DNA of 64,000 nucleotides from Candidatus Rifleibacteriota bacterium (GCA_024710525.1 JANJUP010000022.1:192001-256000); one strand, 5' to 3'; counted from the stretch's first letter, positions 1 through 37,848 are shown. Notes: generated from the sequence alone by a model not told the origin. Translations and numbers: made by a program.

Positions 1-1404
1 CCGGGCTGCGGCCGGTCTGCCTTGCGAACTTCCAGACGCTGGCGAATTTCGTTGGCCTTCTGCCATTCAGGGTTCTGCTCTTCATAGCTCTCCTGAATTT
101 TCTGGCGCTTCTGTGAGGGGAGATCCCACAGGCGGGTCTTGGCAAGAGAAGTGCCCACTACAGCGGTCTGCATGGCGGCGTTTGACAGCATCGCGGATTT
201 TCCCGCTTCAGACAGCTTAATACTCTTGTAGGCCGTTTCGAGATCGGCAATTTTGCTTTCATAATAGGCCCAGGCCGGTGAATCTTTTTCATATTTGCTC
301 TGCAGCATGCGATTGTATTCGATCTGGTTGAGAATCTCTTTTTTATCTACTGCGGCGCTGGCGGCGCCGGTCGCAAAAGCAAACGGGTTGCTGATTACCG
401 CATTTGAAATCAGATTCGCCTTCGAAGTGCTGCCAAAGAGCTTGCTTGATGCAATTTTGGCCCAGCTGCTTTCGGCGCCGAGTCGGCCGGCAATTCCGCC
501 GAGAACCCCTGAAATGCCTGCTGAAACCAGAGCCTTGTGTTCGTCCTTGCGGAAGTTATCCCAGGTGTATTTTTCTTTGGTAATGGTGTCGAGTTCCTTG
601 AGAGCTGCGACCAGTTCTTTCTGCTGTTCTTCGTTTGGGTTTTCTATGGCTGAAAGCTTCTCGATCTTTGTTTTCAGCTCCTTCTCGCGTTCGTCGTAGT
701 TGTAGTAGTGATCATACCAGAGATTGGTTACGGCACCCTTGGCTACGTTAGAAACGGTGCTGCCGAGGAAGCTTATGGCGCCGGCCTTCGCTGCAGTCTG
801 CACTATGGTTTTTACGGTCAGTGGCCCGACCGACTGAACCAGACCACCTGTCAGCATGTTGAACGGAGCGAGTGCGCCGCTGATTGCTGCTTGAATACTG
901 ACTTCGCGCAGGATCTTATCCATGCCCTTCTTGCTGCCTTCATCTCTGAATGAATTTTTGCGCAGCTCATAAGCAAGGGTCATGGCCGCGGCAGCGGTAG
1001 CACCAACAGCTACGGCACCTACGACTACCCAGGCCAGCGGGCAGACAACGGCAGCAGAAAAAGCCATTACCGCCAGAGTCGGCAGCAGCGCCTTGCCGAT
1101 CGACCAGGCGATTTCTTCGGCCTTGCTCATCTCTTTCTTTTTTACCGCATCGTCAACTGTGGTGTCTGAGATCGTGGCAGTTGCCGAAGCTGCCTCACCG
1201 GTAGCCGAACTGACCGCCATCGGGTCATTTTTGTCAATGGCAATTTTGCTTTCGGTGAATGGGGTGGCGGTGGCGGCTTGCAGCCTGTTTATCGTAAGGT
1301 TTTCAAAAATTCCCGGGCTGACGCCGATCAATGCCGCGATCAGTAGCAGGCCAAGAATACGATGAAAGGCGTATTTTTTCTGGATTCTGCTGTTAAGGTT
1401 CATG
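1..1404 (-). CDS. Hypothetical exported/membrane protein, partial. The N-terminal 467 aa lie in the window and the gene continues past the window start.
   Basis: The minus-strand reading frame is open from an ATG at 1402-1404 (GGAG about 7 nt upstream) down to position 1. It is missing from the ORF track only because it has no stop in the window. It has an N-terminal hydrophobic signal/anchor (LGLLLIAALIGVSPG) and Ala/Gly-rich amphipathic segments. The plus-strand ORFs at 295-1365 are antisense to it. I recognise no family. Confidence 0.5.
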
Positions 1405-1610: not shown

Positions 1611-2522
1611 ATGCAGCAGACAGTTTTGACAGTCAGAGAAAAAGTCGTGGCGGGTTTTTATCTGGTTTTTACCGTTCTGGCATTCTCTTCGATCGAGATA
1701 ATGGTCAGTCCGGTCAGACACGATATGGCGCCGATGCTGATGAATTTCTGGCGCTTTCTGATCGGAACTCTTACCTTACTGCCATTCGTTTTGCTGACAA
1801 GATTCAGACAGCTGACGCAATTGCAGCGAACCGATCTGTTGCATCTGGCCCTGCTCGGCTGCATGAATATTTTTTTGAGCATGGGGGCCCACTCAGTCTG
1901 TATAAAATACGCTAAAGCCTCTACCGCAGCGGTTCTGATTGCTGCCAATCCGATTGCCACCAATTTTTTTGCATGGTTGCTGCTGCGCGAAGAGATGCGT
2001 CTGAAAAGAATTTTCTCGCTGCTGCTTGGTCTGGCCGGTGTTGCACTTATTGCCGTCAGAGCTGACAGCTCTGTCGATACACCACTTGGTATTCTCTCGG
2101 GGATTGTGGCGATGGTCGGCTTTGGCTTGTATACCGTCTTATCGAAGCGCCAGCTGCAGAAACACGGCAGCCTTGTAGTTCTGGTTATGAGCTGTCTGCC
2201 GGCACTGCTTCTTTACCTGCCGGTTCTGCATTTCTTTCGGGCGGGGTTCTGGCCACCGCCGCATGCATGGCCAAATCTGCTTGGCTCGGGGATAATCGGC
2301 ACCGGTCTTGGCTATCTGACCTTCATGAAAGCAATGCAATACCTTTCGGCCGGCCGTACCAGTTACCTTTTCTTTTTCAAGCCACCCGTGGCAATGGTTC
2401 TGGCCTGGTGGTTTCTTGGCGAAAAAAGCTCGACCGCAGCGATTGCCGGGACCCTGCTGATCATGACCGGGATTCTTGTCGAGACAATCGGTCGGGCTGA
2501 AAAACCGGCTCTTAATCAGTAA
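1611..2522 (+). CDS. EamA/DMT-family transporter
   Basis: About 10 TM segments with two EamA-like halves. The track ORF starts at a TTG at 1581. I prefer the ATG at 1611, which has GGAAAAG upstream. Confidence 0.75.
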   Translation: MQQTVLTVREKVVAGFYLVFTVLAFSSIEIMVSPVRHDMAPMLMNFWRFLIGTLTLLPFVLLTRFRQLTQLQRTDLLHLALLGCMNIFLSMGAHSVCIKYAKASTAAVLIAANPIATNFFAWLLLREEMRLKRIFSLLLGLAGVALIAVRADSSVDTPLGILSGIVAMVGFGLYTVLSKRQLQKHGSLVVLVMSCLPALLLYLPVLHFFRAGFWPPPHAWPNLLGSGIIGTGLGYLTFMKAMQYLSAGRTSYLFFFKPPVAMVLAWWFLGEKSSTAAIAGTLLIMTGILVETIGRAEKPALNQ

Positions 2523-3853
2523 CCGATAATAAACGGGTCAGTATCGGGGTTTTCTACTTTTACCGGACTGGCCTTGCCTGGCGTAGCGGTGCTGCCGCGA
2601 GTCGTATATTCAACTCCTGCCGATGGCGGCTGGTCGGTGAACTGCCAGTTGCCCTGCGCATCTTTCCATTTGTAGATGGTTCCGTTTTTGTGTGTGATTA
2701 CCTGGTATTTTTCTTCTGGCTGTGGGGCGGGCGGCGTTACATTGGGCACGCTTCTGGTGGCAAGATATGCCTGTATGGCGGTGTTGTTGCCGAGAATAAG
2801 GCGAATATCCGCATCCGAAAGACGGCCAAAAGTTTCCCGGTCGAGGGTCTGCGCCACAACCGTTGTATGTTGCGGATAGTCTTTGATAAAGTTTTGCAGA
2901 AAGCGGCTCATGCGGTTTTCCTGCTGGTTGTGCTTTTCGAATGAATCGAGAACCAGTTTTTCACCGTCGGGCAGGTCTGCGGCCAGTCGGGTAAAAATCA
3001 GGGCATTGATCGCTTCGATGTCGAGAAAGCCCTCGCCATTGATCTGAACGCTGGCAATCGGGTATTCATCGTAGCCGCCCTGGGGTCTTTCGATTTTTAC
3101 GGTTTTGAGGCTGTCACGAAATTCCTTTTCCTCTTCAGGAAAGAAAAGCATTTTGATGAAGTTAGCAAAACCCTCAGCGAAAGATGCCTTTGGTTCAATT
3201 TTTTCGTTGATGTAGTGAGCGCCGTCATGACCATAGGCATTTGTTTCGGTAAATGTTTTGTCGAGTGCATGCCCGAACTCGTGGGCAAAAGTGCTTTTCA
3301 TGCTTTTGGCGGTGTTTGAGCCGTGGCCGAGGCAGTCGGTGCCGCTGATGCGGATTTCTGAATGCAGGCTGAAGCTGTCACCGGAGCGCCGGTAGGTGCG
3401 TGAATTTTGCGGCCAGAAATCATCGGTTATTTTTGTGTAACGGCTCGTATCGGTATAACCGGTGATATCGACCAGATTGAGGTCGATGGTCTTGGTCTGA
3501 CCAGGAATTCGTGGTTTCAAAGTGTCGAATTCGGCCTGTCTGGCGAAACGATAGGTTTCGAGAAGCCCTTTCTGCAGGTCGGTCAGCTCATTTTCAGTTG
3601 TTGCGCCCATCAGTCGCATGAGGTGCGTCTCGTCCGTTACTTTGATGGTTTTGACCCGGTAGGCGTTCTGGCCGTCGGCGGAGAGAACCACCTTTTCGCC
3701 TTCCGGAACATTCTGCTGCATATTGCTGGCAGGGCCAAACGCGGTTATGGCCGTATAACTGGTGACGATGGTTGTTTCGGCCGCCAGAGCAGCCGGTGCG
3801 AAACAGACCGGAAAAATTGCCAGCAGGGTCAGCAGCAGCAGGCGTTTGAACAT
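2516..3853 (-). CDS. Secreted zinc metallopeptidase-like protein (HEFGH motif) with a C-terminal DUF4124-like domain
   Basis: There is a signal peptide (LLLLTLLAIFPVCFAPAALA). An HExxH zinc-binding motif (AHEFGHALD) is present. The C-terminal YKWKDAQGNWQFTDQPP resembles the DUF4124 signature. The ATG start at 3853 has AAGGGGA upstream. Confidence 0.6.
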   Translation of the reverse strand: MFKRLLLLTLLAIFPVCFAPAALAAETTIVTSYTAITAFGPASNMQQNVPEGEKVVLSADGQNAYRVKTIKVTDETHLMRLMGATTENELTDLQKGLLETYRFARQAEFDTLKPRIPGQTKTIDLNLVDITGYTDTSRYTKITDDFWPQNSRTYRRSGDSFSLHSEIRISGTDCLGHGSNTAKSMKSTFAHEFGHALDKTFTETNAYGHDGAHYINEKIEPKASFAEGFANFIKMLFFPEEEKEFRDSLKTVKIERPQGGYDEYPIASVQINGEGFLDIEAINALIFTRLAADLPDGEKLVLDSFEKHNQQENRMSRFLQNFIKDYPQHTTVVAQTLDRETFGRLSDADIRLILGNNTAIQAYLATRSVPNVTPPAPQPEEKYQVITHKNGTIYKWKDAQGNWQFTDQPPSAGVEYTTRGSTATPGKASPVKVENPDTDPFIIGY

Positions 3854-3862
3854 AGATTCCCC

Positions 3863-4381
3863 TTATCGGTTGACGAAATGCCTGACGGCTTCGAGGTAAC
3901 GGGCGTTTTCTGACAGGTTTTTCTCTACCACTTTCAGCAGTTTCTGACGTTCAAAATCGTCGGGGTATATCTGTTTATCATTGACTGCGGCTTTAATTGC
4001 CTGGTAGTCAGGAGAGAACCTGACACCCATTTTCAGCCATGAGCCCATTTCGTCAGGCTGTTGGCCGGTTTTTACCGCGAGAATCTTGACTTTGCGCGGT
4101 GACGCCTGAGGCACTGCTTTGATGACACTGGCGTTGCTGAGAATCTGCAGGTCTTTTGAACTCTCAAAGAAGATTTCAAGATTTTCCAGAGTGCCGAGCC
4201 GACTTTCGATGATGGCAGTCAGCCTTATTTTGCCGGCCTCTTCAATCTGGTCGACAATCTGCAGAGAAATATTTGGTGGAAACACGTAAGCGAACTGATT
4301 GGCGTGCAGGCGCCCATGAATCAGTGACGTGAGAATCATAAGCATCATCAGTAGCTGCAGCCCGGCAACCTGTTTGATCAT
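3863..4381 (-). CDS. Hypothetical exported protein
   Basis: Start is the ATG at 4381 (GAGGG about 9 nt upstream); the track's TTG at 4387 adds 2 aa. An N-terminal hydrophobic segment is followed by a hydrophilic domain. It sits between the giant protein gene and the metalloprotease gene on the same strand. Confidence 0.45.
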   Translation of the reverse strand: MIKQVAGLQLLMMLMILTSLIHGRLHANQFAYVFPPNISLQIVDQIEEAGKIRLTAIIESRLGTLENLEIFFESSKDLQILSNASVIKAVPQASPRKVKILAVKTGQQPDEMGSWLKMGVRFSPDYQAIKAAVNDKQIYPDDFERQKLLKVVEKNLSENARYLEAVRHFVNR

Positions 4382-4446
4382 AAACAAACCCTCAGAATTT
4401 AGATTTCCCCAATTCTAATGATTTATCAGCAAACAGGCAATACACT

Positions 4447-7400
4447 TTACCATTCGTAGTATTGAGTTTTACCGTCGAGGCTTGTTCCTTCTGATGGAGA
4501 GATAAGTTTGCCCTTTGCACCATAGGCTGTGGGCTTTGTCTGACCTGGAATTACCGCTTTTTCAAGCTGAATACCGTCGAACAGCACCGAATATGACGCG
4601 AGAGCTACCGTGGCGTCGGGGGTGGCATTTTTAAGAACGATGAAAGTATGACTGGCACTGCTTTCGACAAACTGATAATCGAAGGTTATATACAGGCGAT
4701 ACCAGGTATGGTCGTCCTGCTGGGCGATGTTGACAGCGCCGGCATCGATTATGCCGGGGCCGCTTTGTGACAGCGTTTTATTCAGGAAATCGAAGCTGAC
4801 TTCTCTGTAGGAAGCGGTTGTCTTGTCGGCCAGAGTTTCGAGAAAGCCGATTGCTGCAGTGCCGGTTGCGGCCACGAATGCCGAAAAGATAACGGTTTCC
4901 GGGGCCAGGGCCGAGAATGAGGTTGTGGCGATTTCCTGATACAGGCTGCCGGATGCCAGGTCCGGGCCGATGGCAGAGCTGAGGACATTGAGCTGCAGCT
5001 CGCAGGTCTGTCCTTCAAGAGTTTGCACGCCGGTGTGGAGACCTGCTGCCTGAGACGAGTCGACTGGCCCGACAGTTACCTGGCAGATCGTGCTTGCCCC
5101 TACAACCAGCGGGTCAGGAATTGCAGAGAAACTGATGAGTGAAGAATCAATGGTTCCGGGGCCGGCGAGATCTGCCATGGTCCATTTTGTATCAAGGCCC
5201 GCAATGTCGACATTGCCGATGTTATTGATTGTCAGATCGAAAGGCAGTGTCGACTCGCCCGGCTTAACGTCTCCGAGGTCGGCAATAGATGGTAGAATCT
5301 CGATTCTTGGAAAAGCGTTCACGGATACTGACAGAACAAACGTGGCCGAGGCTTCGCCTGCGTCAATCGCGCCGTTGTTATTCTCATCTTCATAGATGGT
5401 CTGCAGACCGCTGTAAGACCCCGGCAACTGGTGCATCGGGATTGTCATGCTGGCTGAGGTGGCTTTGGTTCCGTTCGAAGAAACATTGAAAGGTCCGGCC
5501 GGCAGAAAGCTGAATGCGCTTACCGGTAAGGTGTTGGCACCGGAGACCAGGGCTGTTTTTGACCACTTCAACTTGGACAGCGGAATCGAGGTGAGATTTT
5601 TTACTTCGAAGGCCTTGCTCAAAACTGTGGGCGTTCCGGGGATACTGGGGTCGCCTCCGCCAAGGCCTACGGGAGTGGTTACCGAAAGCTTCTTTTCACC
5701 TACGGTTAATTTCAGCAACAGGTTGTGACTTTCTTCAGCTCCTGCGTCGAAAGTATTGTTTTGTGTCTGATAATCATCGTAAATAACCTGGTAGCCCTCG
5801 TAGGGCCCGGCGGTCTGCCCTGGTGGAACGGAAATACTGACAGTGATCGTAGCTGTCTGCCCAACGGCAAGGCTTCCGGCCAGCGGGTCATTGAAAGTGA
5901 TCTGCGTTTCCGAAATGCTTGGCGGTCCCGGAGCGACAGGGTTTAAAGGGAATTTTACCACTTTAACCACTTCTGCCGGGTTGTTGATCGGGATATTCCC
6001 GGCATTGATCAGTGTGAGTTCAATGCTGCGGCTCTGCCCCGCCGGAATAAAGAAAAAATCAGCAGGATTAGGGCTCACGGTGATTACTCTTTTTCCGGTT
6101 ACCCTGACTTCGAGAGTTACAGTATCGCTTGCCTCGGTCGGGTCAGGTAAAAAGTCGTTATTTGTGTCGTCCCATACTCTTATTGTGCAGCTATATGTGC
6201 CAATGGTCTGGCCGGCAGGAATCTGAACGGCAACCTGACCGGTTTTGATCTGTCCGGAACTCAAATAGTCGAAAGTTGCTGGCGTAAAAATACAAGCTGC
6301 CTTCGGAATAAATTTGGTCGCGTCAGATTGCTCAATGAGGTTTTCGATAGCTATTACTCTTGGCTTCGCCAGAATGAGCGAGCCGGTATTTTTTATGCGG
6401 TAAGAGGTTGAGGTCGAGGTTGAATTGGGAGTTCCGGTGGCGAGAAGGGGCCCGACTTCAATGATGTCTACCGCTTTACTGCCGACCTGGCAGGTGATTG
6501 CGAACGTGTCGCTCGCACTGATGGCAGCGTTGTCGAAAAGGCGGGCCGGGTTACCGAAATACAACCCGGGAGGCTGAGCAGGCAGAAGCTCTATGGTCAC
6601 CGTAGCATTGAATGTCTTTCCGAACCCGGTGAGGAAAAATGCTGCCGGCTCAATTGCATAACGATCGTCGGTAATCTGCAGCGCGTTGTCGAAGAGAGTG
6701 GTTTCCTGCCAGCCAAGGTTGCTCAGGTCAGTGTTGCCGGCATTGCGGCAGAGAAATCCGATGGATTTCGGCGGGTCACCGGGAGCGACGCCGCCCAGGT
6801 CGACGGTCGAAGGTATGACCTGCACAGAATAATATGGGTTGATGGTTACTTTGAGTTCAAAGGTTTTGGCGACTTCATTGGCGGTTCCGTTGTTTATTCC
6901 ATCGCCATTCTCGTCGTCAAAGACTGTTTGTAGGCCGCTGAAAACACCGACAGGGGTGCCGGCTGGTATATAAAGGCTTATGGTTGCAACTTTTGCATTG
7001 GCTGCGCCTGGCAAGATCGGCCCCGGGGGCATTTCAATGGTCAGGTAGTCCTGCGAAATCGCGTATGCACCCTGGGTAAGATCAGACAATTCAGCCGCCG
7101 GGTTAACGATATCGAGAGTGCCGACATTGGTAATGGTAACGTTGAAATTGGTTAAAGTGAAGGTTGGGGTAGCGTTACCGAGGTCTTTCGGGTTGTCGGT
7201 AATGTTAAAGTCTTTTGCTCCGACAGAGAATCTTACCATGAATGTGCATGATGCCTCGCCGGCATCGATAACATCCGGGTTAGAGGTGTCTTCCCAGAGG
7301 GTAAAAGTTGCGATGTGTTCGCCGACTGTGTCGGCGCCGACGTATGCCGAGATGCTGGCAATTTCGACGCCATCGGTTGCAAGTGCCCCGAGTGGGTTCG

Positions 7401-10400
7401 GGGAGACAGTGATGTATGAGCTCGCAAACGTCTGATCGGTCTGTTTGAATTTAAGGGCCGTCAGATTCAGGTTGCCGCCGTTAAAAATGTTGATTGTCAC
7501 AGTTGCGGTGTTCGAATCGACCGGGTAACCGCCGAGTTCGACCAGGCTGGTGTCTGTATAAACAACCTTGCATTCGCTGGCAACTGCCTCTACCGTGAAT
7601 TCGTAGTATGGCTCGCCCAGGTCTCTGGCGCTGTTGCCCGAAAGATCATCATACACCGCCATTATTGCCGTATAGGTGCCTGCCGGCTGATTGTAGGGTA
7701 TGGTCAGCCCGAAACTGCAGGCAGTTGTCAGGGTTCCGGTTGCGACTGAAAATCCTGATGCCGGTATAAAATCAAAGTAGGCATAGGGAATTTTATCGCC
7801 GCTGGTTGAAGTCGGGTAGGCTTTCTGCCAGAAAACTCTTGAGAGGTGAGTGTTACCATTATTATGCAGCTGAAATGGCCATGCAATCGTGCTGCCGCAG
7901 ACCATGGGCGCAATTTGTATCGGGTCGGGCTGCACTTCAAGGTCACGGAAAAGAATCTGGATGTTATTGCTGGTTGTTGAAGCCAGAGAAACGGTTCTCT
8001 GCGTTTCGGCGTAGGTCGTATTGAGGTCGATGCCGCTTGCCGCAGCCTGCATGGCAAAACTGCTGCCGATTGCGGTAAAGTCGGTTGTCTTGAAAACCCA
8101 GGTAAAAGTGGCCGGATTGCCAAAGCTGACACTCACTGAGGCCGGTGTTGGCCCCGAAACAAGGGTGTTGGCGGCTCCAGTGTAGGTTGGCGCTCGAATC
8201 GGCATGGTCGGTGTCGCAGGATAAATCGTTGAACTGCTGGCAACATTGTTCGTAAGCAACATGGTAACGGTAATATTGTTGCCAAGTTCGAGAGTTGTCG
8301 GAAAAATTGCCAAAGAAGCGGTAAGCTGTCCCTGCGCCTGCACAGTAAAAAACTGTTCGCCCAGATTTTCCTGTCTGTTTCCAGATGGACTCTGTACCTG
8401 CCAGATTCTCAGTCGCCACCGGTCAAGATACTGAGCTCCGGCATCGGTTGGGATTACGAATGAACAAGAGTATTTTCCAGTGGCTGAAGCCTTGCCCACC
8501 CCGGAATCAAAGCGGCCGTCGCCATCTGGGGGCGTGGTTGGGTCGTAGAGGTGGACACTGACATTTGCGTTGGCGGTCAGGCCGGAAAATTCGACAAAAA
8601 TGGTTTGCCCCTGATTATATGTGTATTGTTCAGGAGAAAAAGAGTTGTTGGCGGCGCAGCGGCCGGAAACAGCCTTGATTTCCCAGAAATAGACCGGAGC
8701 GCAGACTGTTGTCGAAGTTGATGCCGGGTTATTGGCTTCGTATGCCGTGAAAGAGGCAGAAGCGTTAACCGCGCCGATAGCAGAAACTGCATCTACAGAA
8801 ACCGTGAAGATTACGTTTAATGTAGAGTTTCCAGCCAGAAGAAAAGGGCTTGTGGTTGGGTTTGTTACGGCCTGGTGATGAGTCCCATTGCTGAATGAGA
8901 GACTGGCGGAGTCTACGTAAACGGCAGCCTCTCCCTGATTTCTTACCTGCATGGTAACACTCAGCCCCGTCTGGTTGCGGTAGACATCGCCGTAGCCTTC
9001 GGTTAATGAAACGATGCTGAGAATTGGCGGGCTTTGAATGAGGCAGAGGCTGCTGGTTTGAGTTGCTGCCGTCAATGAAGTTGAATCGTTAAGGTCATAG
9101 CCATAGCCAGCGCCCTCAAATTCAAATGAGCCAACCGAGGTGGCAGCGAACTGCCAGTTGAAGGTTGTCTGCCCCAGACCGGCTATTGATGAGACTTCTG
9201 GAGTTGGGCCTGAAAGCAGGCCAGCATTGCCGGTCAGGAGCGTCAAAACGCCGGGGAGTGCATCTGTGACAGCCGCACCACCTGAGTTTATGATGGTTGA
9301 GGTGGCTGTGAATGTCTGATTAAGGGTTACGGTTGCCGGCAGCTGGTGCTGTATGGAAATGGCAGCGGGGGTAACCACGTAAAATTGTTTTTCTGCGAGT
9401 GGTGTGCTGTCAATGACTCTTGTGGCGATTACGCGCCAGAGCCCCAGCGGCGAGGCTGCGTCGAGGCTTAACTGGTCGGTCATTATGCCATGCTCGTCTG
9501 TTGTCGACGGCGGGTCTGTAACTTGCACCAGCACGCCGGAAGGGTTATACCAGCGGAACCTTTGCTCGGTAAGAGGCTGCAGGTTTTCAGTTTTTGCATA
9601 AACGATGGTGCTGCCCTGATTGAAACTGTTCGATTCAATTATGTACGAGGGGAATTTTGGCGGGCCCTGATAGGTTTTCATGACGCCGGCGACGACTATC
9701 CAGGTGCCTGGTTCGGTTGCACCGTCATAATTTGTTGAAGGAGTCAGCAGGTTGACATCTCTGAAGGTTATGTCAGCGTCGATGACGCAGGTTCCTGTTG
9801 CCGAAAGGGGGCTGACGTCGACCAGGTAGTGGATGGTTACCGGCAGGCCAGGGTAAACCGCAACCGGAAGGGCATCGACCATGCGTATGTTTTCGTAACT
9901 GCCGAGATTGAACTTGAATGAGGTTGAATCCCAGTAAGCGGCGGCATTTTTGTTGCCGTCATTGATTACTTCGACTGCGATGGAGACATCTTTCTGGGCC
10001 CGGTAAACGGTTTCTGGGGTGGTTATTTTTTGCACCACGAGATTTGCCGGCGAACGGATCAGCCATGAATGGGTCTGTAAAGCCGAGGTGGCGACGATTG
10101 TGCGGGCCGGAACGATCTGAATATTGGTGCCGGTAGCAGTTGCATCGATTACATCGGTGTCTGGAATACTGCCTTCAAGAATGTCCACCGAGAAGGTAAT
10201 CGTTGTGCTGGCTTCACCGGAGATAGTTATTGGCAAAGCGGTCTGCAGGGTTTTATTGTAAGCCCCGATTGCCGGGTCACTGAAGTAAAGGTCGATTTCT
10301 GATAGCTTTGCCGGGGAATAACCGGTGTTTGAAACATATACCTTAACGGGAATTCCGCTCTGACCTATCGTAACGGTTGTGGGAGCAGCTTCGACTTTGG

Positions 10401-11310
10401 TGATTACCAGTTTGGCTGTTTTAAAAACCGCCACTGGCGACAGGGGAGAAACGGCACCGGTCGAATCGACGTCGGCAATTGCATAATAGACCGCGTCGGC
10501 GGCCGGAGGGGTGGGGTCGGTATGATACGAATCATTTGCTGACGAAGTAATGGTCGCTATTTGTGTCCAGGGCCCGTTTTCCGCCAGACTTCGATAAACC
10601 CGATAGGCTGAAAAGGTTACGACTGAAGAACTGCTGTTGTGCCAGTCAAGGTAGCATGCCCCAGAGGTAGTTTCTGATGCGGTCAACCCGGACGGGCTGA
10701 TATTGCAGCTTATTCTGTCGACGCGGCATTCGGCGGTGCTTTTCGGCCCGCAGCCAAGCAACCAGTAAAAATGTATACGATATCTGCTGCCCCCTGGCAG
10801 TGTTGCCGGGAAATTTGAGACGTTCTTCCAGGCGGGGAGGGGATTAGGGGTGGCTGTGCCGGAATTTTGTATGTTCAGAAAAGTGTGCGTCGGGGCTGTC
10901 TCGCTTTCTTTTCGAATGGTTCCGAGGAGGTTGTATTCCCAATTGTTGTCATCAGCGTATTCTCTATAGTATACGCTGATCAATGCATTGGTATCGGATG
11001 CTCTGGCAGCTGCCGGAAAAGTCTGCCAGAGCTCACCATCGGTATAAAGAAATACGTTGGCGCCACCGCCGGCTCCGCGGTCATACAGGCCTCTGAAATA
11101 AGCTCCATCAAGGGTCCCATCGGTGGTATTTCTTGCAAGATTTGTTAACGGGGCTATATCAACCATGGTTTTCTTGGTCCAGCCAGTTTCATTGGTTGTA
11201 AAGCTGCCGTTGGCGATCTGTTCAAGAGCGAAAACGGTCGGAAGTCGGAGCAGGGCCAGGACAAAAAATGACAAAAAAACTGCAATGCATTTTTGCCGAT
11301 GGTTAAGCAT
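4447..11310 (-). CDS. Giant (2287 aa) repetitive secreted/cell-surface protein with multiple Ig-like / CARDB-like beta-sandwich repeats
   Basis: An uninterrupted 6.86 kb ORF with an ATG and GGAGGT RBS. It has a signal peptide (VFLSFFVLALLRLPTVFA). It is Thr/Ser/Asn/Gly-rich with a recurring motif (D/E)DxNxDGxIDAGEAS...T(F/V)xL(K/E)V, for example EDENNNGAIDAGEASATFVLSV, SNPDVIDAGEASCTFMVRF and DDTNNDFLPDPTEASDTVTLEV. I see no sortase, PEP-CTERM or T9SS sorting signal at the C-terminus. Confidence 0.85.
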   Translation of the reverse strand: MLNHRQKCIAVFLSFFVLALLRLPTVFALEQIANGSFTTNETGWTKKTMVDIAPLTNLARNTTDGTLDGAYFRGLYDRGAGGGANVFLYTDGELWQTFPAAARASDTNALISVYYREYADDNNWEYNLLGTIRKESETAPTHTFLNIQNSGTATPNPLPAWKNVSNFPATLPGGSRYRIHFYWLLGCGPKSTAECRVDRISCNISPSGLTASETTSGACYLDWHNSSSSVVTFSAYRVYRSLAENGPWTQIATITSSANDSYHTDPTPPAADAVYYAIADVDSTGAVSPLSPVAVFKTAKLVITKVEAAPTTVTIGQSGIPVKVYVSNTGYSPAKLSEIDLYFSDPAIGAYNKTLQTALPITISGEASTTITFSVDILEGSIPDTDVIDATATGTNIQIVPARTIVATSALQTHSWLIRSPANLVVQKITTPETVYRAQKDVSIAVEVINDGNKNAAAYWDSTSFKFNLGSYENIRMVDALPVAVYPGLPVTIHYLVDVSPLSATGTCVIDADITFRDVNLLTPSTNYDGATEPGTWIVVAGVMKTYQGPPKFPSYIIESNSFNQGSTIVYAKTENLQPLTEQRFRWYNPSGVLVQVTDPPSTTDEHGIMTDQLSLDAASPLGLWRVIATRVIDSTPLAEKQFYVVTPAAISIQHQLPATVTLNQTFTATSTIINSGGAAVTDALPGVLTLLTGNAGLLSGPTPEVSSIAGLGQTTFNWQFAATSVGSFEFEGAGYGYDLNDSTSLTAATQTSSLCLIQSPPILSIVSLTEGYGDVYRNQTGLSVTMQVRNQGEAAVYVDSASLSFSNGTHHQAVTNPTTSPFLLAGNSTLNVIFTVSVDAVSAIGAVNASASFTAYEANNPASTSTTVCAPVYFWEIKAVSGRCAANNSFSPEQYTYNQGQTIFVEFSGLTANANVSVHLYDPTTPPDGDGRFDSGVGKASATGKYSCSFVIPTDAGAQYLDRWRLRIWQVQSPSGNRQENLGEQFFTVQAQGQLTASLAIFPTTLELGNNITVTMLLTNNVASSSTIYPATPTMPIRAPTYTGAANTLVSGPTPASVSVSFGNPATFTWVFKTTDFTAIGSSFAMQAAASGIDLNTTYAETQRTVSLASTTSNNIQILFRDLEVQPDPIQIAPMVCGSTIAWPFQLHNNGNTHLSRVFWQKAYPTSTSGDKIPYAYFDFIPASGFSVATGTLTTACSFGLTIPYNQPAGTYTAIMAVYDDLSGNSARDLGEPYYEFTVEAVASECKVVYTDTSLVELGGYPVDSNTATVTINIFNGGNLNLTALKFKQTDQTFASSYITVSPNPLGALATDGVEIASISAYVGADTVGEHIATFTLWEDTSNPDVIDAGEASCTFMVRFSVGAKDFNITDNPKDLGNATPTFTLTNFNVTITNVGTLDIVNPAAELSDLTQGAYAISQDYLTIEMPPGPILPGAANAKVATISLYIPAGTPVGVFSGLQTVFDDENGDGINNGTANEVAKTFELKVTINPYYSVQVIPSTVDLGGVAPGDPPKSIGFLCRNAGNTDLSNLGWQETTLFDNALQITDDRYAIEPAAFFLTGFGKTFNATVTIELLPAQPPGLYFGNPARLFDNAAISASDTFAITCQVGSKAVDIIEVGPLLATGTPNSTSTSTSYRIKNTGSLILAKPRVIAIENLIEQSDATKFIPKAACIFTPATFDYLSSGQIKTGQVAVQIPAGQTIGTYSCTIRVWDDTNNDFLPDPTEASDTVTLEVRVTGKRVITVSPNPADFFFIPAGQSRSIELTLINAGNIPINNPAEVVKVVKFPLNPVAPGPPSISETQITFNDPLAGSLAVGQTATITVSISVPPGQTAGPYEGYQVIYDDYQTQNNTFDAGAEESHNLLLKLTVGEKKLSVTTPVGLGGGDPSIPGTPTVLSKAFEVKNLTSIPLSKLKWSKTALVSGANTLPVSAFSFLPAGPFNVSSNGTKATSASMTIPMHQLPGSYSGLQTIYEDENNNGAIDAGEASATFVLSVSVNAFPRIEILPSIADLGDVKPGESTLPFDLTINNIGNVDIAGLDTKWTMADLAGPGTIDSSLISFSAIPDPLVVGASTICQVTVGPVDSSQAAGLHTGVQTLEGQTCELQLNVLSSAIGPDLASGSLYQEIATTSFSALAPETVIFSAFVAATGTAAIGFLETLADKTTASYREVSFDFLNKTLSQSGPGIIDAGAVNIAQQDDHTWYRLYITFDYQFVESSASHTFIVLKNATPDATVALASYSVLFDGIQLEKAVIPGQTKPTAYGAKGKLISPSEGTSLDGKTQYYEW

Positions 11311-11312
11311 GT

Positions 11313-11876
11313 TTACCTCCGGTTGCCGGTGCGGATTTCTCTGATTGCTATTGCTGCCTGCCAGATTGTCAGCGAAAGAATCACCAGGAGTGCCAGGTAT
11401 TTGAGGTTGAAGAAGTCTGCCGCTTTCGCCCGTGGTGCCTGGTCAGACGGAAATTCCTTTATTAGCCCGGAAAGCTTTGCCTTTGTGAGATATTGTTCCT
11501 GAATAGTCGTTTCGTCGGGATATTTTTTCAGATAAACCTCAAGAAGTCGCTGCTTTTGTACCGTCGGGCTGGCCAGAAAGTTGAATAGAAGCTCATTACC
11601 GGAGTCTCTGGTGATAAGACTCGATGAGATTTTTTTCTGCCCGGTTTCGTGATACGAAGACAGTGACCAGCCCGGATCGGGCAGGTCTTTCCAGATAAAC
11701 TTCGCTTTCAGCAACAGGTTTTGTGCTTTTTCGTGGTCTCCGCTATCGTGCGCCGCCCGTGCCTGTCTGAGAAGCGACATCGCCATATTTCGCTTTTTAT
11801 CTTTGGCAGTAGACGGAATAATCGTCAGAATGATCAGCAAAAAAAGCAGAAAAACCCCAACCTTTTTGTATCTCAT
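11313..11876 (-). CDS. Small bitopic membrane protein (hypothetical), immediately upstream of the giant protein gene
   Basis: Start is the ATG at 11876 (MRYKKVGVFLLFLLIILTIIPS...). The track's TTG start at 11951 would run through the upstream terminator hairpin. There is an N-terminal TM/signal and a C-terminal TM (LALLVILSLTIWQAAIAI). Its stop lies 2 nt before the giant-protein ATG. Confidence 0.5.
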   Translation of the reverse strand: MRYKKVGVFLLFLLIILTIIPSTAKDKKRNMAMSLLRQARAAHDSGDHEKAQNLLLKAKFIWKDLPDPGWSLSSYHETGQKKISSSLITRDSGNELLFNFLASPTVQKQRLLEVYLKKYPDETTIQEQYLTKAKLSGLIKEFPSDQAPRAKAADFFNLKYLALLVILSLTIWQAAIAIREIRTGNRR

Positions 11877-11909
11877 ATCCTCATGATACCAGATTAAATA
11901 TTTATCTGT

Positions 11910-11948
11910 AAAAAAATTATGACAAAAGCCCCCGGAGGATAGGGGCTT
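11910..11948 (-). terminator. Rho-independent terminator downstream of the PhaR-like gene
   Basis: A hairpin (aagcccc / 9-nt loop / ggggctt) is followed on the minus strand by a U-rich tract (revcomp ...ggggcttttgtcataattttttt). Confidence 0.5.
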
Positions 11949-11992
11949 CAATTGTCAGGCGCTTTATTTAATGTTTCACAGGAAACAGCAGG

Positions 11993-12601
11993 TCAGTCTG
12001 AGTGCAGCTTCTCCTCAAGTTCGCGCAGGCGCTTGAGAATTTCGGTCATTTTGTCGTCATCCCTTTTTGCTGCGCTGCTCTCTGTTTTTTTGGCAGATGC
12101 TTCGTTTGAAGGACCTTGAGGCTGTTGCTGCGGCTGCGCGGCGGGGGTCTGCATAAATGGGTTCATGCCCTGAAAAGGATTCGGCATCTGCATCCAGGGA
12201 TTTTGAAAGGGCATTGATGGCATCGAAGGCATTGACGGCATTGACGGCATTGACGGCATGCCTGGCATGGTCATGCCGGGCATCGAAAATTTGCCATCCT
12301 GGTAATTCTTGTACATGCTCATCATCCAGGGGAAGAACTGCTGGAAAAAATTCTCGATCGCCTCAGGCGGCGACTGCAGCATCATCTGGTAAAAATAGGT
12401 CGGGACCAGTTCATACCGGTCTTCAAGCATGACCTGCATGAGAATGTATTTGGTGATGTCTTTTCCGGTGGTTTTTTCGACAACCTTGACCTTGTCGCCG
12501 CGCTGCAGAAAATCACGGATCTCGGTCAGTGAAACATAACGGGCTTCTTCGACACAGTATAAACGACGATTGTCGTATTTTTTAATCAGAATTTCTTTCA
12601 C
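11993..12601 (-). CDS. PhaR-like (PHB/PHA accumulation regulator DNA-binding domain) protein with a C-terminal (MPS)n / Pro-Met-rich low-complexity tail
   Basis: The N-terminus IKKYDNRRLYCVEEARYVSLTEIRDFL matches the PHB_acc_N / PhaR consensus (IKKY.NRRLY...YV.L.D). GTG start at 12601 with GAGG 9 nt upstream. The tail is PGMTMPGMPSMPSMPSMPSMPSMPF followed by a Q-rich stretch. Confidence 0.6.
   Translation of the reverse strand: MKEILIKKYDNRRLYCVEEARYVSLTEIRDFLQRGDKVKVVEKTTGKDITKYILMQVMLEDRYELVPTYFYQMMLQSPPEAIENFFQQFFPWMMSMYKNYQDGKFSMPGMTMPGMPSMPSMPSMPSMPSMPFQNPWMQMPNPFQGMNPFMQTPAAQPQQQPQGPSNEASAKKTESSAAKRDDDKMTEILKRLRELEEKLHSD
12201..12300 (-). repeat. Coding tandem repeat, 9-bp unit (ggcattgac), about 3 perfect copies plus degenerate copies, encoding (MPS)n
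   Basis: The sequence ggcattgacggcattgacggcattgacggcatgcctggcatggtcatgccgggcat lies inside the PhaR-like ORF. It is a microsatellite-like stretch that could vary in length. Confidence 0.6.
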
Positions 12602-13936
12602 TCAAAACCTCGGAAATGTGATTAAGAGCCGCGGGCAGAACAGTCAGACCGACATGGTGAGTATTGAGCGTCTTAACGCTTGCAACCCTGGCACCACGAG
12701 CTGTCAGACCTTTCTGGTAAACAGCGCTCTTCAGGAACAGAACCCCGTCACTGCTGTCAGCAAATTCACCGACCGGAAATTCGAGCCAGAAGAACTTGAC
12801 AGTGTCAATCTCCTGTTTGGTTCCGGCGAGAATGTGGCAGGTCACCGAAGGGTCGATTCCTTTCGTGTTGAGTGAGCTTATCACATTTCCGGCTTCCTGT
12901 ATAGCACGGTCAATGCCCTCTGATACCAGGAGACCACTGATACCGCCTTTGTAAAGCGCGTTGCGGGAAACATTTGCGTCTGCAGTAATACTCTGATAGT
13001 TGAAGTCGATACCATCTTTAACCCAGTTGTGAAGCATCTGATACTGCCCCGGAAACAGGCGGTTGTGAGATTCGGTTTCGACATACATCCCCTGCCAGAC
13101 CATCGAACGCGCGCCGAGCGGTGCAGCAAGTTTCTGTTGCATTACAGTAAAGTTATACATGTAATATCTGAATGCGGTATCGATACCCTTCAGCGGTGAA
13201 GCAACGAATATGATTTTGCGGATATCCTTGCGGAAAGGGGTCAGCCACGAATATTGCGGATACTCAGCGCCGAGGTCAGAGGCATAAATGCGCACCGACA
13301 TGGCGCCCTTACTGTGGCAGATCACGTCTACTTTTTCGGCGGCGGTCAGTTCTTTTATTCTGGCGATGGCGTTGGCCACCTGTTGTGCCTGAAGAAAATT
13401 GTCGCCATGCGGGTGTGAAAAAGTCAGGGCGAAGACTGAAAAACCGTTTTTGACCAGATGCTGCATGATGCCTGGCTTGTCAATATTGCCACCTTCGGGA
13501 ATATCAAAAGTATAGGGGTGACAGAAGCCCCTGCAGGCGTTGTCGCCAGCGCCGTGAACGAGAAGCACCGGTGTCTTGTGTTGCGCGCGGTTCCAGCGTG
13601 GGGCCAGGTGCAGCAGAACATTGCGCGAATGCGGCTTGTTTGTGCCGAAGGCCTTCTGGATAATACTGTGATTCTGGCGACTTTTGACATGAAACGGCTC
13701 GGCGACAAAATTCGGGGTGTCGTCTTCGAGAAGTTCGATTCTCTCCCAGGGGGAGCTGTCGCGGCCGGTAACATCGCTGATAACGCGAACTGCAGCCCCG
13801 GCAAACGTCGGCAGCAGAACCAGCAGAATGAGAAAGCTTAAAAAAGCGGTTCTGAAACAAAATCGCCTGAAGTCAGTAAAATTCTTAATCACTACTCGAT
13901 CACCTTTCCTGCGAGAGGCAATGCAATACTCTTTTT
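12582..13936 (-). CDS. Membrane-anchored alpha/beta hydrolase (lipase/esterase-like, PGAP1/lipase class 2-like)
   Basis: An LLVHGAGDN oxyanion-type motif and an ICHSKGAM nucleophile elbow (a GxSxG variant) are present. There is an N-terminal signal anchor (FLSFLILLVLLPTFAGAA). I prefer the ATG at 13936; the track's alternative start is at 14024. It overlaps the PhaR-like start by 20 nt, so the two are probably cotranscribed. Confidence 0.6.
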
Positions 13937-14152
13937 CGTCTGTCATGCCGACCCTGACGGGCTTTTCGTTGATCAATACTGAGAGACTGAATGTCAGTTT
14001 CGACAGAACGGTTAATTGATACAAAACAATTTTAACCGAAAAAACTCAGATTTCCAAGACTCCCAAAAGGTTTTTTTTGCTCTGAATTCTCCGGTGCGGT
14101 ACAACCGGCTTTGAGAAAACTGACGAATTTCGTGAAAAAAATAGCAAAAGAC

Positions 14153-14200: not shown

Positions 14201-16204
14201 ATGGCTGAGGTAAAACGTATGCAGCAATTTTTAACGGCAATTCTGGTGATAACCTGCGGCGGTCTGCTGGCATGGCTTACGGGCAGACTCAAGACTCTGT
14301 CCGCCGCTGTTGGCACCGGTTCATGCATTGGCGGGGCCGCTCTTGCCCTGATACCGGTAACGGAAATTCTTGTATCCGGCGGGCAGACTGCAGAAATGGT
14401 ATTCAATCTGCCCCTGGGTGCAGCTACCCTTAAACTTGACACTGTTTCGGCCTTTTTTTCGTTGCCGGTAATCGTTCTCGGAGCTCTTTCTGCCATATAT
14501 GCCGCCGCAACCTGCCACCACGATAAACATGAATGCGGGGGATACTGGTTCTTTTACTGCCTGTTGATGGCTTCAATGCTCTTTTTGACCGCCTCAGCCA
14601 ATGCCATACTTTTTCTCATGGCCTGGGAAATAATGTCGGTCGCGGCATTCTTCCTGATTATCCACAGAGATGAGATCGCCTCGGCCAGAAACGCCGCCTG
14701 GCGATTTCTCGTGGCCAGTCACGTCGGAACCGCCGGCCTGTTTATCATGTTTGCCGTTATCAGTTCGCAGTGCGGTTCTTTCGAGTTCGCCAGTTTTACC
14801 AGAACCCCCGTTTCGGCTGAAACCGCCTCGCTGGTTTTCTTTCTTGCCCTGTTCGGGTTCGGGGTCAAAGTTGGTCTGCTGCCTCTGCATGTCTGGATGC
14901 CTGATTCATATGCATTTGCCGATGCCCACGTCTCAGCCGTGCTTTCCGGGGCGATGAGCAAAATGGGGTTTTACGGCCTGGTCAGAGTTCTGATGCTTCT
15001 GCCGGTTCATGCGCCATCATGGGGCTGGGCGCTTGCCTTCGGCGGCCTGCTTACCGGTGTTTTCGCTCTCATCACCGCTCTCGCACAGCATGACCTCAAA
15101 AAGGTAATTGCTTACAGCAGTATGGAAAACGCCGGTATTATCATGATGGGCCTTGGCTGCGCCGTTCTTGCCGGCATCTGGAAAGTGCCGTCGCTGGCTT
15201 TTGCTGCGCTGGCCGGGGCGTTGCTGCATGTTCTCAATCATGCGGCATGCAAGGGTCTTCTTTTTCTCGGCTCTGGCGCCGTCTACTTCGGCACCGGAAC
15301 CAGGAAACTCGAAGCAATGGGCGGCCTCGCGAAAACCATGCCATATACCGCGCTGTTTTTCGGCATTGGCGCTGCGGCTATTTCAGGTCTGCCACCTTTT
15401 AACAGCTTTATCAGTGAATTTATGATTTTTCTTTCCGGTCTGCAGGCAGCCCGACTCGGAACCTCATCTGCTCTGCTGCTTGCCGGCGTAATACTTGCCG
15501 GGCTAGGCTTGATCGGCGGTCTGGCAATGGCGACCTTTTCGCGAACTTTCGGCCTGGTTTTTCTCGGAGCTTCACGCAGTGATAAAAAAGTTGAACCGAG
15601 AGAGTCCGGCTGGCTTGCCAGATTGCCAATGGCCATTCTCGTGCTGGCAATTTTCCTGCTTTCGCTGTTTTCGCCATTTATACTCATTCCGGTAACGCGC
15701 GTTGCCTCGACGATTGCCGCTGCCTCAGGCACAATATTCACTCAGGAAAGCGCGATGCTCAATATTCAACCGGTAACGGTCAGCGCCGCGGTATCATTCT
15801 TTCTGGCACTGTTTGTTGTGCTTTTCTGGCTGATCCGCAGCCGGTTTTTCAGTGCCGGCGACATTGACAACCGCTGCACCTGGGATTGCGGTTTTGCTGC
15901 CCCGGATTCCCGCATTCAGTATACCTCTTCTTCATTTTCGCAACCGGTCAGCGAGGTTTTTTCGAGTATTGTCAGGCCTTATCGCCATGGCGAAAAGGTC
16001 GCCGGCTTTTTCCCGGCGCACGCAAGCTTCAGAACAGACGCTCCTGACTCTCTGCTGCGTTATTTGTATATTCCATTGTTTGGCCTTATTGACCGGGCGA
16101 TGGTGCCCCTGCGCGCCCTTCAACACGGACGCCTGCATCTCTACATCTGTTATCTGGCAATTGTTCTTCTTGCACTCCTGATCTGGAAGGTGGTGGCAGC
16201 ATGA
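14201..16204 (+). CDS. NuoL/HyfB-like antiporter-type membrane subunit of a complex-I / group-4 hydrogenase-related (Ehr-type) complex
   Basis: 667 aa with about 16 TM segments. It carries the conserved Mrp/NuoL antiporter-like core (e.g. WMPDSYAFADAHVSAVLSGAMSKMGFYGL). It is the first gene of a translationally coupled operon. Confidence 0.85.
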   Translation: MAEVKRMQQFLTAILVITCGGLLAWLTGRLKTLSAAVGTGSCIGGAALALIPVTEILVSGGQTAEMVFNLPLGAATLKLDTVSAFFSLPVIVLGALSAIYAAATCHHDKHECGGYWFFYCLLMASMLFLTASANAILFLMAWEIMSVAAFFLIIHRDEIASARNAAWRFLVASHVGTAGLFIMFAVISSQCGSFEFASFTRTPVSAETASLVFFLALFGFGVKVGLLPLHVWMPDSYAFADAHVSAVLSGAMSKMGFYGLVRVLMLLPVHAPSWGWALAFGGLLTGVFALITALAQHDLKKVIAYSSMENAGIIMMGLGCAVLAGIWKVPSLAFAALAGALLHVLNHAACKGLLFLGSGAVYFGTGTRKLEAMGGLAKTMPYTALFFGIGAAAISGLPPFNSFISEFMIFLSGLQAARLGTSSALLLAGVILAGLGLIGGLAMATFSRTFGLVFLGASRSDKKVEPRESGWLARLPMAILVLAIFLLSLFSPFILIPVTRVASTIAAASGTIFTQESAMLNIQPVTVSAAVSFFLALFVVLFWLIRSRFFSAGDIDNRCTWDCGFAAPDSRIQYTSSSFSQPVSEVFSSIVRPYRHGEKVAGFFPAHASFRTDAPDSLLRYLYIPLFGLIDRAMVPLRALQHGRLHLYICYLAIVLLALLIWKVVAA

Positions 16205-17121
16205 TCAGCATTCATTCTGTCGTATTTTTTATTCTCACTCTTCTGCTTGCACCGATCCTGCCAGGTGTCATCAACAAGGTAAAAGCCTTCTTTGGCGGCA
16301 AAATGGGGCCGCCCGTTCTGCAGCTCTATTACGATATTGCCAAGCTGATGAGAAAATCCGCGACCTACAGCCAGACTTCAAGCCTGGTCACACGACTCGC
16401 GCCTGTCGTGATCTTTTTTTCGACTCTCGGTGCCGGCCTGTTTGTGCCTTCTTTTTTCAGGGAAGCAAGTTGCCGCTTTGCTGGCGATGTGGTTCTGATG
16501 GCCTATCTGCTGGGTATCGGCCGCTTCTTTATGGTTATTGCCGCCATGGACCGCGGTTCGGCCTTTGAAGGAATGGGCGCCAGCCGCGAAGTTCTCTACA
16601 GTGCTCTGGCCGAACCAGCCTTTTTCTGCGGTCTGCTTGTATTGATCAATGAAACTGGCGATCTGAGTCTTTCCGGAATTTTCAACGGGCTTTCGCTCGA
16701 ACTCTGGCGGCAGAACCCGGCCATAATGCTGCTGATTGCGGTGAGCTGGATGATAGTCCTGCTGACTGAAAATGCGCGAATCCCGGTCGATGACCCGAAC
16801 ACCCACCTTGAACTGACCATGATTCATGAAGTAATGATTCTCGACTACAGCAGTAAAGATCTCGGGTTGATCGAATACGCTTCTGCCCTCAAACTCTGGT
16901 TGTTTTCGAGTCTGCTGGTCGGTCTGATTATCAGCGCCGGGGCAGTTCCGCCATATCTTCATATTCCGGTATTCCTGTTCGGAATACTCGCGGTCGCGGT
17001 CGTTATTGGCTGCGTCGAATCGACCATTGCCCGCCTCAGGCTGATTCATATTCCAAAATTCATCGTCGGTTCTGGCGCTCTGGCCATAATCGCCCTGATT
17101 CTGAAAATTGCAGGGAACTGA
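16201..17121 (+). CDS. NuoH/HycD-like membrane subunit
   Basis: 306 aa with about 8 TM segments. The start overlaps the upstream stop (ATGA). Resembles the HycD/NuoH family. Confidence 0.85.
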   Translation: MISIHSVVFFILTLLLAPILPGVINKVKAFFGGKMGPPVLQLYYDIAKLMRKSATYSQTSSLVTRLAPVVIFFSTLGAGLFVPSFFREASCRFAGDVVLMAYLLGIGRFFMVIAAMDRGSAFEGMGASREVLYSALAEPAFFCGLLVLINETGDLSLSGIFNGLSLELWRQNPAIMLLIAVSWMIVLLTENARIPVDDPNTHLELTMIHEVMILDYSSKDLGLIEYASALKLWLFSSLLVGLIISAGAVPPYLHIPVFLFGILAVAVVIGCVESTIARLRLIHIPKFIVGSGALAIIALILKIAGN

Positions 17122-17126
17122 AAACC

Positions 17127-20856: not shown

Positions 20857-20864
20857 GGTGAAAT

Positions 20865-30152: not shown

Positions 30153-30424
30153 CGTCTTCCCTTAACCTTGAAATATTTGCTCAATTATACCGCCGAAACG
30201 TCGTTTCTGCAGTATTTTTTTAGCCTTGCAGGCACCCGGGCACTTCTTACTGCAACTTTTCAGCTTTTTCCAGATGACAAGTTCACCAATATGCCTATAT
30301 ACTCATGGTAGATACAGTAAATAAAGATTCTGGTTTTCGGTCATGCCTGAGAGAGTTTGTTCCCCTGCGTTGTGTTTCACCGCAGATATATGACCACATT
30401 CGGCCTGGTTGGAGAGAAACAGAC

Positions 30425-32146: not shown

Positions 32147-32181
32147 AAACCGAGAGTTGATCGGCGCTTTCGAGAAAACCG

Positions 32182-34687: not shown

Positions 34688-34690
34688 TGT

Positions 34691-35962: not shown

Positions 35963-36003
35963 TTACTGATTCCTTTCCCTGTTGGGGCACTTTGTGAGGT
36001 GTC

Positions 36004-37830: not shown

Positions 37831-37848
37831 CTTGTTGCTCCTTGCCCG

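Follow-up and report, generated by a model that had tools for sequence, protein, structure and literature searches.

The closest described counterparts of the protein reported here are the RTX adhesins LapA, SiiE and MpIBP, which are very large, acidic and Cys-poor chains of tandem beta-sandwich domains with acidic loops, a lectin-like ligand-binding end and a conserved cell-proximal end. A second group consists of ASH/HYDIN/CFA65/VesB-like arrays and NEW3/CARDB/DUF11 surface proteins, and giant surface proteins built from immunoglobulin-like (Ig) repeats are common. The Riflebacteria (Rifleibacteriota) are uncultured, and to our knowledge nothing is known about their cell surface; literature searches on Riflebacteria, Ozemobacter and Rifleibacterium gave no paper concerned, by title or abstract, with the proteins discussed below. 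This study deals with a 64,000-nucleotide stretch of the genome of a Candidatus Rifleibacteriota bacterium (GCA_024710525.1, JANJUP010000022.1:192001-256000), referred to here as the window, and in it with four genes encoding, from the upstream end, a small bitopic membrane protein, a giant repetitive exported protein, a small exported protein of 172 residues and a candidate HExxH metallopeptidase (Table 1). In its most likely form the giant is one more giant Ig-repeat surface protein whose function is deduced from its design. What is new is that it belongs to a phylum-restricted family with an unclassified C-terminal module, a membrane partner and two recombining cassettes.

Hydropathy analysis gave a single signal-like hydrophobic stretch, at the N-terminus, for the giant, the 172-residue protein and the HExxH protein alike. 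The ATG start of the giant gene is backed by an upstream GGAGG and by a good Sec signal (MLNHRQKCIAVFLSFFVLALLRLPTVFA), and public gene calls place the start 12 codons further downstream. The mature protein has a mass of ~239 kDa, a pI of 4.5 and ~0.9% Cys, is rich in Thr, Ser and Ala, and totals ~18 beta-sandwich domains. Fifteen of these are modules of ~120 residues (D01-D15) whose families were resolved by profile-profile comparison (hhalign) of sub-alignments: D08-D15 form one family at 96-100% pairwise probability, and the DDxNxD..EAS..F.L.V tail is clear in the alignment in about seven of these eight copies. The initial annotation had described about 15 or more copies of one divergent repeat marked by this motif; the 15 modules bear out the count, but they fall into four families and the motif family comprises only eight of them. 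It had also considered that the repeat might be a well-known domain. Ig-like superfamilies (ASH/HYDIN, NEW3/CARDB and MG2) are indeed recognised, with sub-threshold scores in the window giant and best E-values of 1e-10 to 1e-13 in homologues. For PF22544 (ASH/HYDIN/VesB-like Ig) the window giant scores 24.2 bits against a gathering cutoff of 25.5, whereas 14 of 15 homologues have a match (best E=1.2e-13); D01, D02 and D05 match NPCBM_assoc/CARDB in homologues.

Structure predictions covered the N-terminal half of the giant (residues 1-1121) and the peptidase. The AlphaFold2 model of the half giant is all beta (pLDDT 82.4, pTM 0.42), and its best Foldseek matches are long Ig arrays (Hydin/CFAP, alpha-2-macroglobulins, gp210 and mastigoneme) at TM-scores of 0.10-0.19 only. 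The giant is a chain of beads and a member of none of these assemblies. It resembles the ASH/HYDIN arrays in that D08-D15 match PF22544, at the sub-threshold score given above, and in that Hydin/CFAP-type Ig arrays are its best structural matches. However, this likeness holds domain by domain only (TM-scores 0.1-0.19), and no described family includes its terminal domains, A-[ABC]x2 superrepeat or C-terminal module. With LapA, SiiE and MpIBP the giant shares its great size, acidity and low Cys content, a tandem beta-sandwich chain, acidic loops that probably bind Ca2+, a lectin-like ligand-binding end and a conserved cell-proximal end. In contrast to them it carries a Sec signal and lacks RTX nonapeptides, a nearby type I secretion system (T1SS) and a LapG-type retention module; its repeat number is fixed and not variable, since homologue length is constant at 2255-2300 residues; and its anchoring end appears to be C-terminal, in a domain of no known family. 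Membership of the RTX adhesins secreted by T1SS was therefore rejected, given the Sec signal and the missing nonapeptide repeats. The first reading of the DNA had proposed an adhesin-like or coat-like surface protein, exported and built from beta-sandwich repeats, and this proposal is supported.

An end-to-end alignment of 15 full-length homologues, the most distant of them 35% identical, has a mean column identity of 54%, and all the named ones come from metagenome-assembled genomes of Riflebacteria. The family is held together above all by its C-terminal domain (~145 residues plus a 33-residue tail), which has a near-invariant ...KLISPS...DGKTxYYEW ending, no Pfam match in any of the 15 homologues and no sequence relative in the PDB. 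It is the best-conserved part in distant orthologues (in P0018, 62% identity compared with 36% overall). Searched against 1.84 billion representatives, a profile of the domain hit only 78 clusters. All full-length hits are proteins of 2000-3800 residues that have it at their very C-terminal end, and all named carriers are Riflebacteria (Ca. Ozemobacter, Ca. Rifleibacterium). A reference scan with one genome per species gave 41 loci (L013-L053), all in Riflebacteria/Ozemobacteraceae bins apart from two contigs labelled otherwise. These two, L017 (SABV01000026.1) and L045 (DYKG01000074.1), are labelled Erysipelotrichia and Candidatus Methylomirabilis, yet carry giants with the C-terminal domain; the gene order of L017 (hydrolase, PhaR, TPR protein, giant) is typical of Riflebacteria, and both contigs probably reflect mis-binning. 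Each genome holds 2-3 paralogues of the giant, in size classes of ~2270-2410 and ~2830-3430 residues. A giant from a Logan assembly (P0005) is 63% identical to that of the window overall, 96% in D15 and 99% in the C-terminal domain, a mosaic that could reflect inter-lineage recombination or a chimeric metagenome assembly.

Like the C-terminal domain (CTD) of the type IX secretion system (T9SS) and the PEP-CTERM/exosortase signal, this conserved domain is restricted to one phylum and forms the very end of several large exported proteins, paralogues of one another, in each genome. However, it shows no sequence similarity to the models for T9SS CTD, PEP-CTERM, LPXTG or GlyGly-CTERM, and compared with T9SS CTD and PEP-CTERM it is larger and has neither a transmembrane helix nor a basic tail. 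The whole giant had no NCBIfam match at E<=0.1, which includes the T9SS CTD models TIGR04183 and TIGR04131. Likewise, it contains no RTX (GG.G.D), LPXTG, PEP or lipobox motif, no C-terminal transmembrane segment of the kind seen with PEP-CTERM, LPXTG and GlyGly-CTERM, and no Autotransporter or related Pfam match that would indicate the beta-barrel of a type V secretion system (T5SS). The earlier statement that the giant has no recognisable sorting signal therefore stands for known signals, but a conserved C-terminal domain specific to the family does exist.

The second conserved element is the membrane protein. Its hydrophobic segments (residues 1-26 and 153-181 by hydropathy) make it bitopic, with an N-terminal signal/anchor, a periplasmic TPR-like helical region that gives a weak TPR_12 match, a C-terminal transmembrane helix and a basic tail. 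Neighbours of the giant genes were analysed by clustering of open reading frames (ORFs) across the 41 loci and five gene-called contigs, and this family was the most recurrent of them (13 of the 41 scanned loci). It lies directly upstream of the ~2280-residue class of giants and divergently upstream of the ~2950-residue class; in the ~2310-residue group an unrelated 254-residue membrane protein with weak TPR matches is found instead. On the evidence of gene order, the conserved partner of the giant is a TPR-like membrane protein and not the protease. The membrane protein had been treated as incidental in the initial annotation, whereas it recurs across paralogue groups and appears coupled to the giant in the window. 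The two genes are separated by 2 nt; the TAA stop of the membrane gene lies inside GGAGGTAAACATG, the 3' end of the gene reading ...CGGAGGTAAACATG. The giant gene looks translationally coupled to the membrane gene, because a GGAGG Shine-Dalgarno sequence located 5 nt upstream of the giant ATG overlaps the membrane gene stop.

The other spacers are 59-65 nt between the giant and 172-residue protein genes and 9 nt between the latter and the HExxH gene, where AAGGGG overlaps the stop of the 172-residue protein gene. Four tightly packed genes on one strand, as first described, are therefore present, all on the minus strand. The transcription unit probably starts at the membrane gene, because a terminator-like hairpin and a promoter-like site sit upstream of it; no terminator-like site was found 3' of the giant gene. 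However, a second promoter-like site precedes the gene for the 172-residue protein, so the four genes do not have to be transcribed as a single obligate operon.

Variation within the family is concentrated in two places. When the window was compared with locus L008, which encodes the homologue P0002, DNA identity was 99.77% and 99.70% over the 10-kb and 8-kb flanks together with the 3' half of the giant gene, and 91% over window positions 8582-10707. Positions 10708-11206 (N-terminal domain) and 8251-8581 (module D06) gave no DNA alignment at all. At the protein level P0002 is 38% identical in the head and 37% in D06, and 99-100% from D08 to the C-terminus. The more distant L013 shows the same two DNA gaps with the same boundaries, and head and D06 are the least conserved parts family-wide (~30% mean pairwise identity compared with 40-55% elsewhere). 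Alignment of the alleles showed that framework residues are kept while loops and many strand residues are altered, with indels and in all residue types. Pfam and PDB sequence searches with the N-terminal head returned nothing. Judged from these alignments, head and D06 are subject to allelic replacement by recombination. Hypervariation by a diversity-generating retroelement was rejected, as the window holds no second copy or template repeat of head or D06 and no reverse transcriptase was found among the scanned window ORFs (Pfam scan of most window ORFs of at least 200 residues, which also underlies the statements on secretion genes below). Silent cassettes for local antigenic switching were rejected too, since no extra copy of head or D06 was found in the window or in loci L001-L009.

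Table 1. Features of the giant-protein locus, with positions counted from the first nucleotide of the window.
Feature	Position	Strand	Size or evidence
Bitopic membrane protein gene	ORF 11313..11951, ATG at 11876 (11313..11876)	-	187 aa
Giant gene	4447..11310	-	2287 aa
Small exported protein gene	ORF 3863..4387, likely ATG at 4381 (3863..4381)	-	172 aa
HExxH protein gene	2516..3853	-	445 aa
Sec-type signal peptide of giant, aa 1-27 (MLNHRQKCIAVFLSFFVLALLRLPTVFA)	11230..11310	-	sequence, hydropathy
N-terminal head, CBM/MAM-like jelly roll, hypervariable, aa 28-200	10711..11229	-
FN3 domain, aa 201-299	10414..10710	-	PDB 3mpc, E=6.5e-9
Ig-like modules D01-D07, aa 300-1121	7948..10413	-	three families, A-[A-B-C]-[A-B-C]; family B (D03, D06) MG2-like
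Hypervariable module D06, aa 877-992	8335..8682	-	MG2-like framework kept, loops replaced
D08-D15, eight tandem ASH/HYDIN-type Ig modules, aa 1122-2111	4978..7947	-	acidic D-D-x-N-x-D...EAS loop before last strand
Family-specific C-terminal domain and conserved tail, aa 2112-2287	4450..4977	-	candidate anchoring or sorting module
Terminator-like 9-bp GC hairpin and U-run, spacer between PhaR-like and membrane genes	11911..11949	-	sequence; fold z=-2.9
Promoter-like site TTTACA-18-TATCAT, preceded by TG, directly upstream of membrane gene ATG	11883..11912	-	10/12, consensus match only
Promoter-like site TTGCCT-17-TAGAAT, spacer between giant and 172-aa genes	4412..4440	-	9/12, consensus match only
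Gene pair of exported alpha/beta-hydrolase (DUF7379/Lipase_2, weak PhaZ7-like match) and PhaR-like protein, overlapping by 20 nt	11993-14024	-

The envelope in which these proteins would act is that of a diderm, because the window encodes a FadL-type outer-membrane protein; OmpA and LpxK are encoded in related loci. Among the scanned window ORFs no components of T1SS, the type II secretion system (T2SS), T5SS or T9SS were found, and ABC transporter, membrane-fusion protein and TolC genes were found neither there nor in the 41 related loci. This agrees with the first impression that no T1SS, T5SS or T9SS partner is present in the window. Two observations from related loci concern export. The ~2950-residue paralogues (L026, L033, L042, L048 and L052, about 10.5 kb) are followed by a conserved protein of ~190 residues whose N-terminus, RGAxLLLLLVMLxxGG..., resembles GspK/minor-pseudopilin leaders by eye; it has no Pfam match, and a profile comparison showed no relationship to the 172-residue protein. 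In L009 (28931-30156) a prepilin peptidase and a ComGC-like pilin are encoded in the vicinity of tandem giants. Both hint at a link to T2SS or type IV pili.

Taken together, these data lead us to favour, with some reserve, the interpretation that the giant is a lineage-specific surface fibre or adhesin, anchored by its conserved C-terminus and bearing a variable lectin-like tip, and that it forms a two-gene core module of the Riflebacteria with the membrane protein. In this model a bitopic TPR-like inner-membrane protein would work with a Sec-exported, acidic, all-beta, beads-on-a-string protein of ~239 kDa. The C-terminal domain would hold the giant to a conserved envelope partner, and the co-encoded membrane protein may serve as its anchor, escort or assembly factor. 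To cross the outer membrane the giant would need a system, such as a T2SS, whose genes lie elsewhere. Binding of Ca2+ by the acidic D-D-x-N-x-D loops is probable and would stiffen the stalk. The variable lectin-like head would be the exposed ligand-binding end, with phages, predators or changing ligands as the force behind its diversification by recombination. The 172-residue protein and the DUF4124 peptidase would be a separate exported module; the peptidase may process the giant, but the data do not support this as a conserved role. If so, the giant family, as the largest conserved exported protein of the Riflebacteria with its 2-3 paralogues per genome, is a good candidate for their main interface with surfaces, partners and phages, and it could serve as a strain-typing marker in metagenomes.

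Several points weigh against this interpretation. The surface location is deduced, and the giant could be retained in the periplasm. The window holds no outer-membrane secretion system and the giant no known sorting signal, and the role given to the membrane protein is read from synteny and coupling only. The peptidase pair lies directly downstream of the giant on the same strand with no terminator detected after the giant gene, so that co-transcription is possible in this genome.

A bolder and more tentative proposal, which we hold to be rather doubtful, is that the C-terminal domain and the bitopic TPR-like protein make up an undescribed system, specific to the Rifleibacteriota, for sorting or anchoring giant surface proteins, with recombining hypervariable lectin-like cassettes carried on its cargo. 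In function such a system would parallel the T9SS CTD or PEP-CTERM/exosortase, and if it exists it would be a lineage-specific route for protein display on a diderm surface.

An S-layer or envelope coat, with copies of the giant assembling by themselves into an outer-membrane lattice or sheath attached through the C-terminal domain, is possible but unlikely. Acidity, low Cys content and a composition rich in Thr, Ser and Ala would suit it, as would the strict conservation of length, the single orthologue per genome in conserved synteny and the conserved C-terminal module; strain-level variation of exposed parts is also typical of S-layers. However, each genome encodes 2-3 paralogues of different lengths, and an elongated chain of ~18 domains with a lectin-like end is not a compact lattice-forming unit. 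Additionally, no SLH or other known S-layer anchoring domain was found in the giant.

The initial annotation had instead put weight on the protease, suggesting that a dedicated downstream enzyme processes or releases the giant. In fold and active site the HExxH protein qualifies as an exported thermolysin-fold zinc metallopeptidase candidate. HEFGH at residues 191-195 and N216-E217 (H191, E192, H195, N216 and E217) are invariant in 20 homologues, so that the HExxH motif is followed by an invariant downstream Glu (E217) as third ligand; the spacing and the I-N-E context resemble the third-ligand motif of thermolysin. The model has the two-lobe thermolysin fold. DUF4124 (PF13511) was found at residues 391-430 (E=1.3e-6, 29.0 bits compared with a cutoff of 22) and is annotated in nearly all homologues. 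Fold, active site and tail agree with the first description of a secreted HExxH metalloprotease with a DUF4124-like tail. The protein had no peptidase match in Pfam or NCBIfam, only one to DUF6055 at E=0.0014, and no sequence relative in the PDB. It differs from the thermolysin-like gluzincins (MEROPS clan MA(E): M4, M30, M36 and the M1 catalytic domain) in being just 9-13% identical to them, in lacking an FTP/PepSY propeptide, in carrying a C-terminal DUF4124 and in being always paired with the 172-residue protein. The latter has 25 homologues, all the named ones from Riflebacteria, and no Pfam domain.

That this peptidase, helped or inhibited by the 172-residue protein, matures, trims or releases the giant by a LapG/LapA-like logic is nevertheless distinctly unlikely in our judgement. 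Both proteins are exported, the active site is intact and invariant in a thermolysin fold, and the genes follow that of the giant on the same strand at short spacing with no terminator found after the giant gene. Adjacency is kept in L008, in L003 and in L013-L016. However, the giant loci L006, L007 and L017 lack the pair. It is present without a giant within 10 kb in three lineages (L010, L011 and L012), and it adjoins none of the paralogue giants in the 41 scanned loci, in which the HExxH gene was found five times and the 172-residue protein gene four times; in L001 and L021 the protease lies a few genes upstream of the giant. The promoter-like site upstream of the 172-residue protein gene also speaks against a fixed link. 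Furthermore, between L003 and the window the 172-residue protein is 74% and the HExxH protein 60% identical and the giant 36%, as expected if the pair has an independent function. Wherever the 172-residue protein gene occurs it is paired with the HExxH gene, and because the pair is absent from some giant loci and present without the giant in others, synteny indicates that it is a phylum-specific module of exported proteins that stands on its own and has joined the giant only in this sub-lineage. Whether synteny is followed from the giant or from the protease, their adjacency proves to be lineage-limited and not conserved, which weakens the notion of a dedicated processing enzyme. A different module, consisting of a 399-residue Peptidase_C39_2-like protein and a 62-residue protein with two transmembrane segments (L001 7806-9215, L007 6906-8312 and L012 8020-9430), accompanies the giant, the HExxH pair or both in some lineages but does not occur in the window.

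A periplasmic protease trap or envelope-defence protein of the alpha-2-macroglobulin type, tethered by the membrane protein, is very improbable. Macroglobulin (MG) domains are present, since D03 and D06 have MG2 Pfam matches, and genes for a membrane protein and a peptidase are adjacent. However, there is no CxEQ thioester motif, a helical thioester domain is missing as well (the half that was modelled consists of beta structure, and Pfam searches gave no match to TED or A2M_recep in any part), no lipobox is present, global TM-scores are just 0.10-0.12, and the hypervariable domains argue for exposure to the outside. Compared with alpha-2-macroglobulin and complement MG proteins the giant also lacks a bait region, a receptor-binding domain and a ring-like arrangement. 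With thioester and thioester domain missing, an alpha-2-macroglobulin identity is largely refuted.

A function of the giant locus as part of the polyhydroxyalkanoate (PHA) gene set beside or within which it lies is hardly credible: genes for the exported PhaZ7-like/DUF7379 hydrolase and the PhaR-like protein do lie directly upstream in the window, L001, L003, L007, L008 and L013-L017, and a phasin-like gene follows the giant in L001, L007, L020 and L029 (with phaB-phaC-phaE-phaA after it in L001 and L007), but the giant is Sec-exported whereas PHA granules are cytoplasmic, the terminator-like hairpin and promoter-like site stand between the PhaR-like and membrane genes, no PHA genes occur near the paralogue groups or L006, and the pattern resembles insertion into an ancestral PHA cluster. 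The link was accordingly judged to mark an ancestral insertion site and not a shared function. The hydrolase/PhaR-like pair is found upstream of the giant in most loci, and in L001, L007, L020 and L029 the giant cluster lies between this pair and the phasin-like gene. The PhaR-like protein has a PHB_acc_N domain, and its C-terminal half is a Met/Pro/Gln-rich low-complexity tract (PSMPSMPSM...).

Further genes in the window should be mentioned. On the other side of the locus, beyond an EamA transporter gene on the opposite strand (1581-2522, +), the 5' part of a conserved gene for a ~817-residue protein occupies positions 1-1403 (-) and runs off the window start; the protein has predicted hydrophobic segments, a long charged region rich in Lys, Glu and Gln, and no Pfam domain, and its gene is syntenic in L003, L008 and L013-L015. 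A divergent Mbh/Mrp-like membrane complex is encoded at 14201-21623 (+), with two Proton_antipo_M proteins, NADHdh, Complex1_49kDa/30kDa and a 20-kDa subunit fused to a 4Fe-4S domain, and its synteny with the giant locus is kept in L003, L005 and L008. Positions 27808-40691 hold a lysine-fermentation-type set comprising lysine 2,3-aminomutase, the alpha and B12-binding subunits of D-lysine 5,6-aminomutase, a beta-keto acid cleavage enzyme, two CoA-transferase subunits, a zinc-type dehydrogenase and an aminotransferase. At 52933-56915 (-), two adjacent DUF4178 proteins (434 and 204 residues) are encoded beside a 513-residue protein with a spermine/spermidine-synthase domain.

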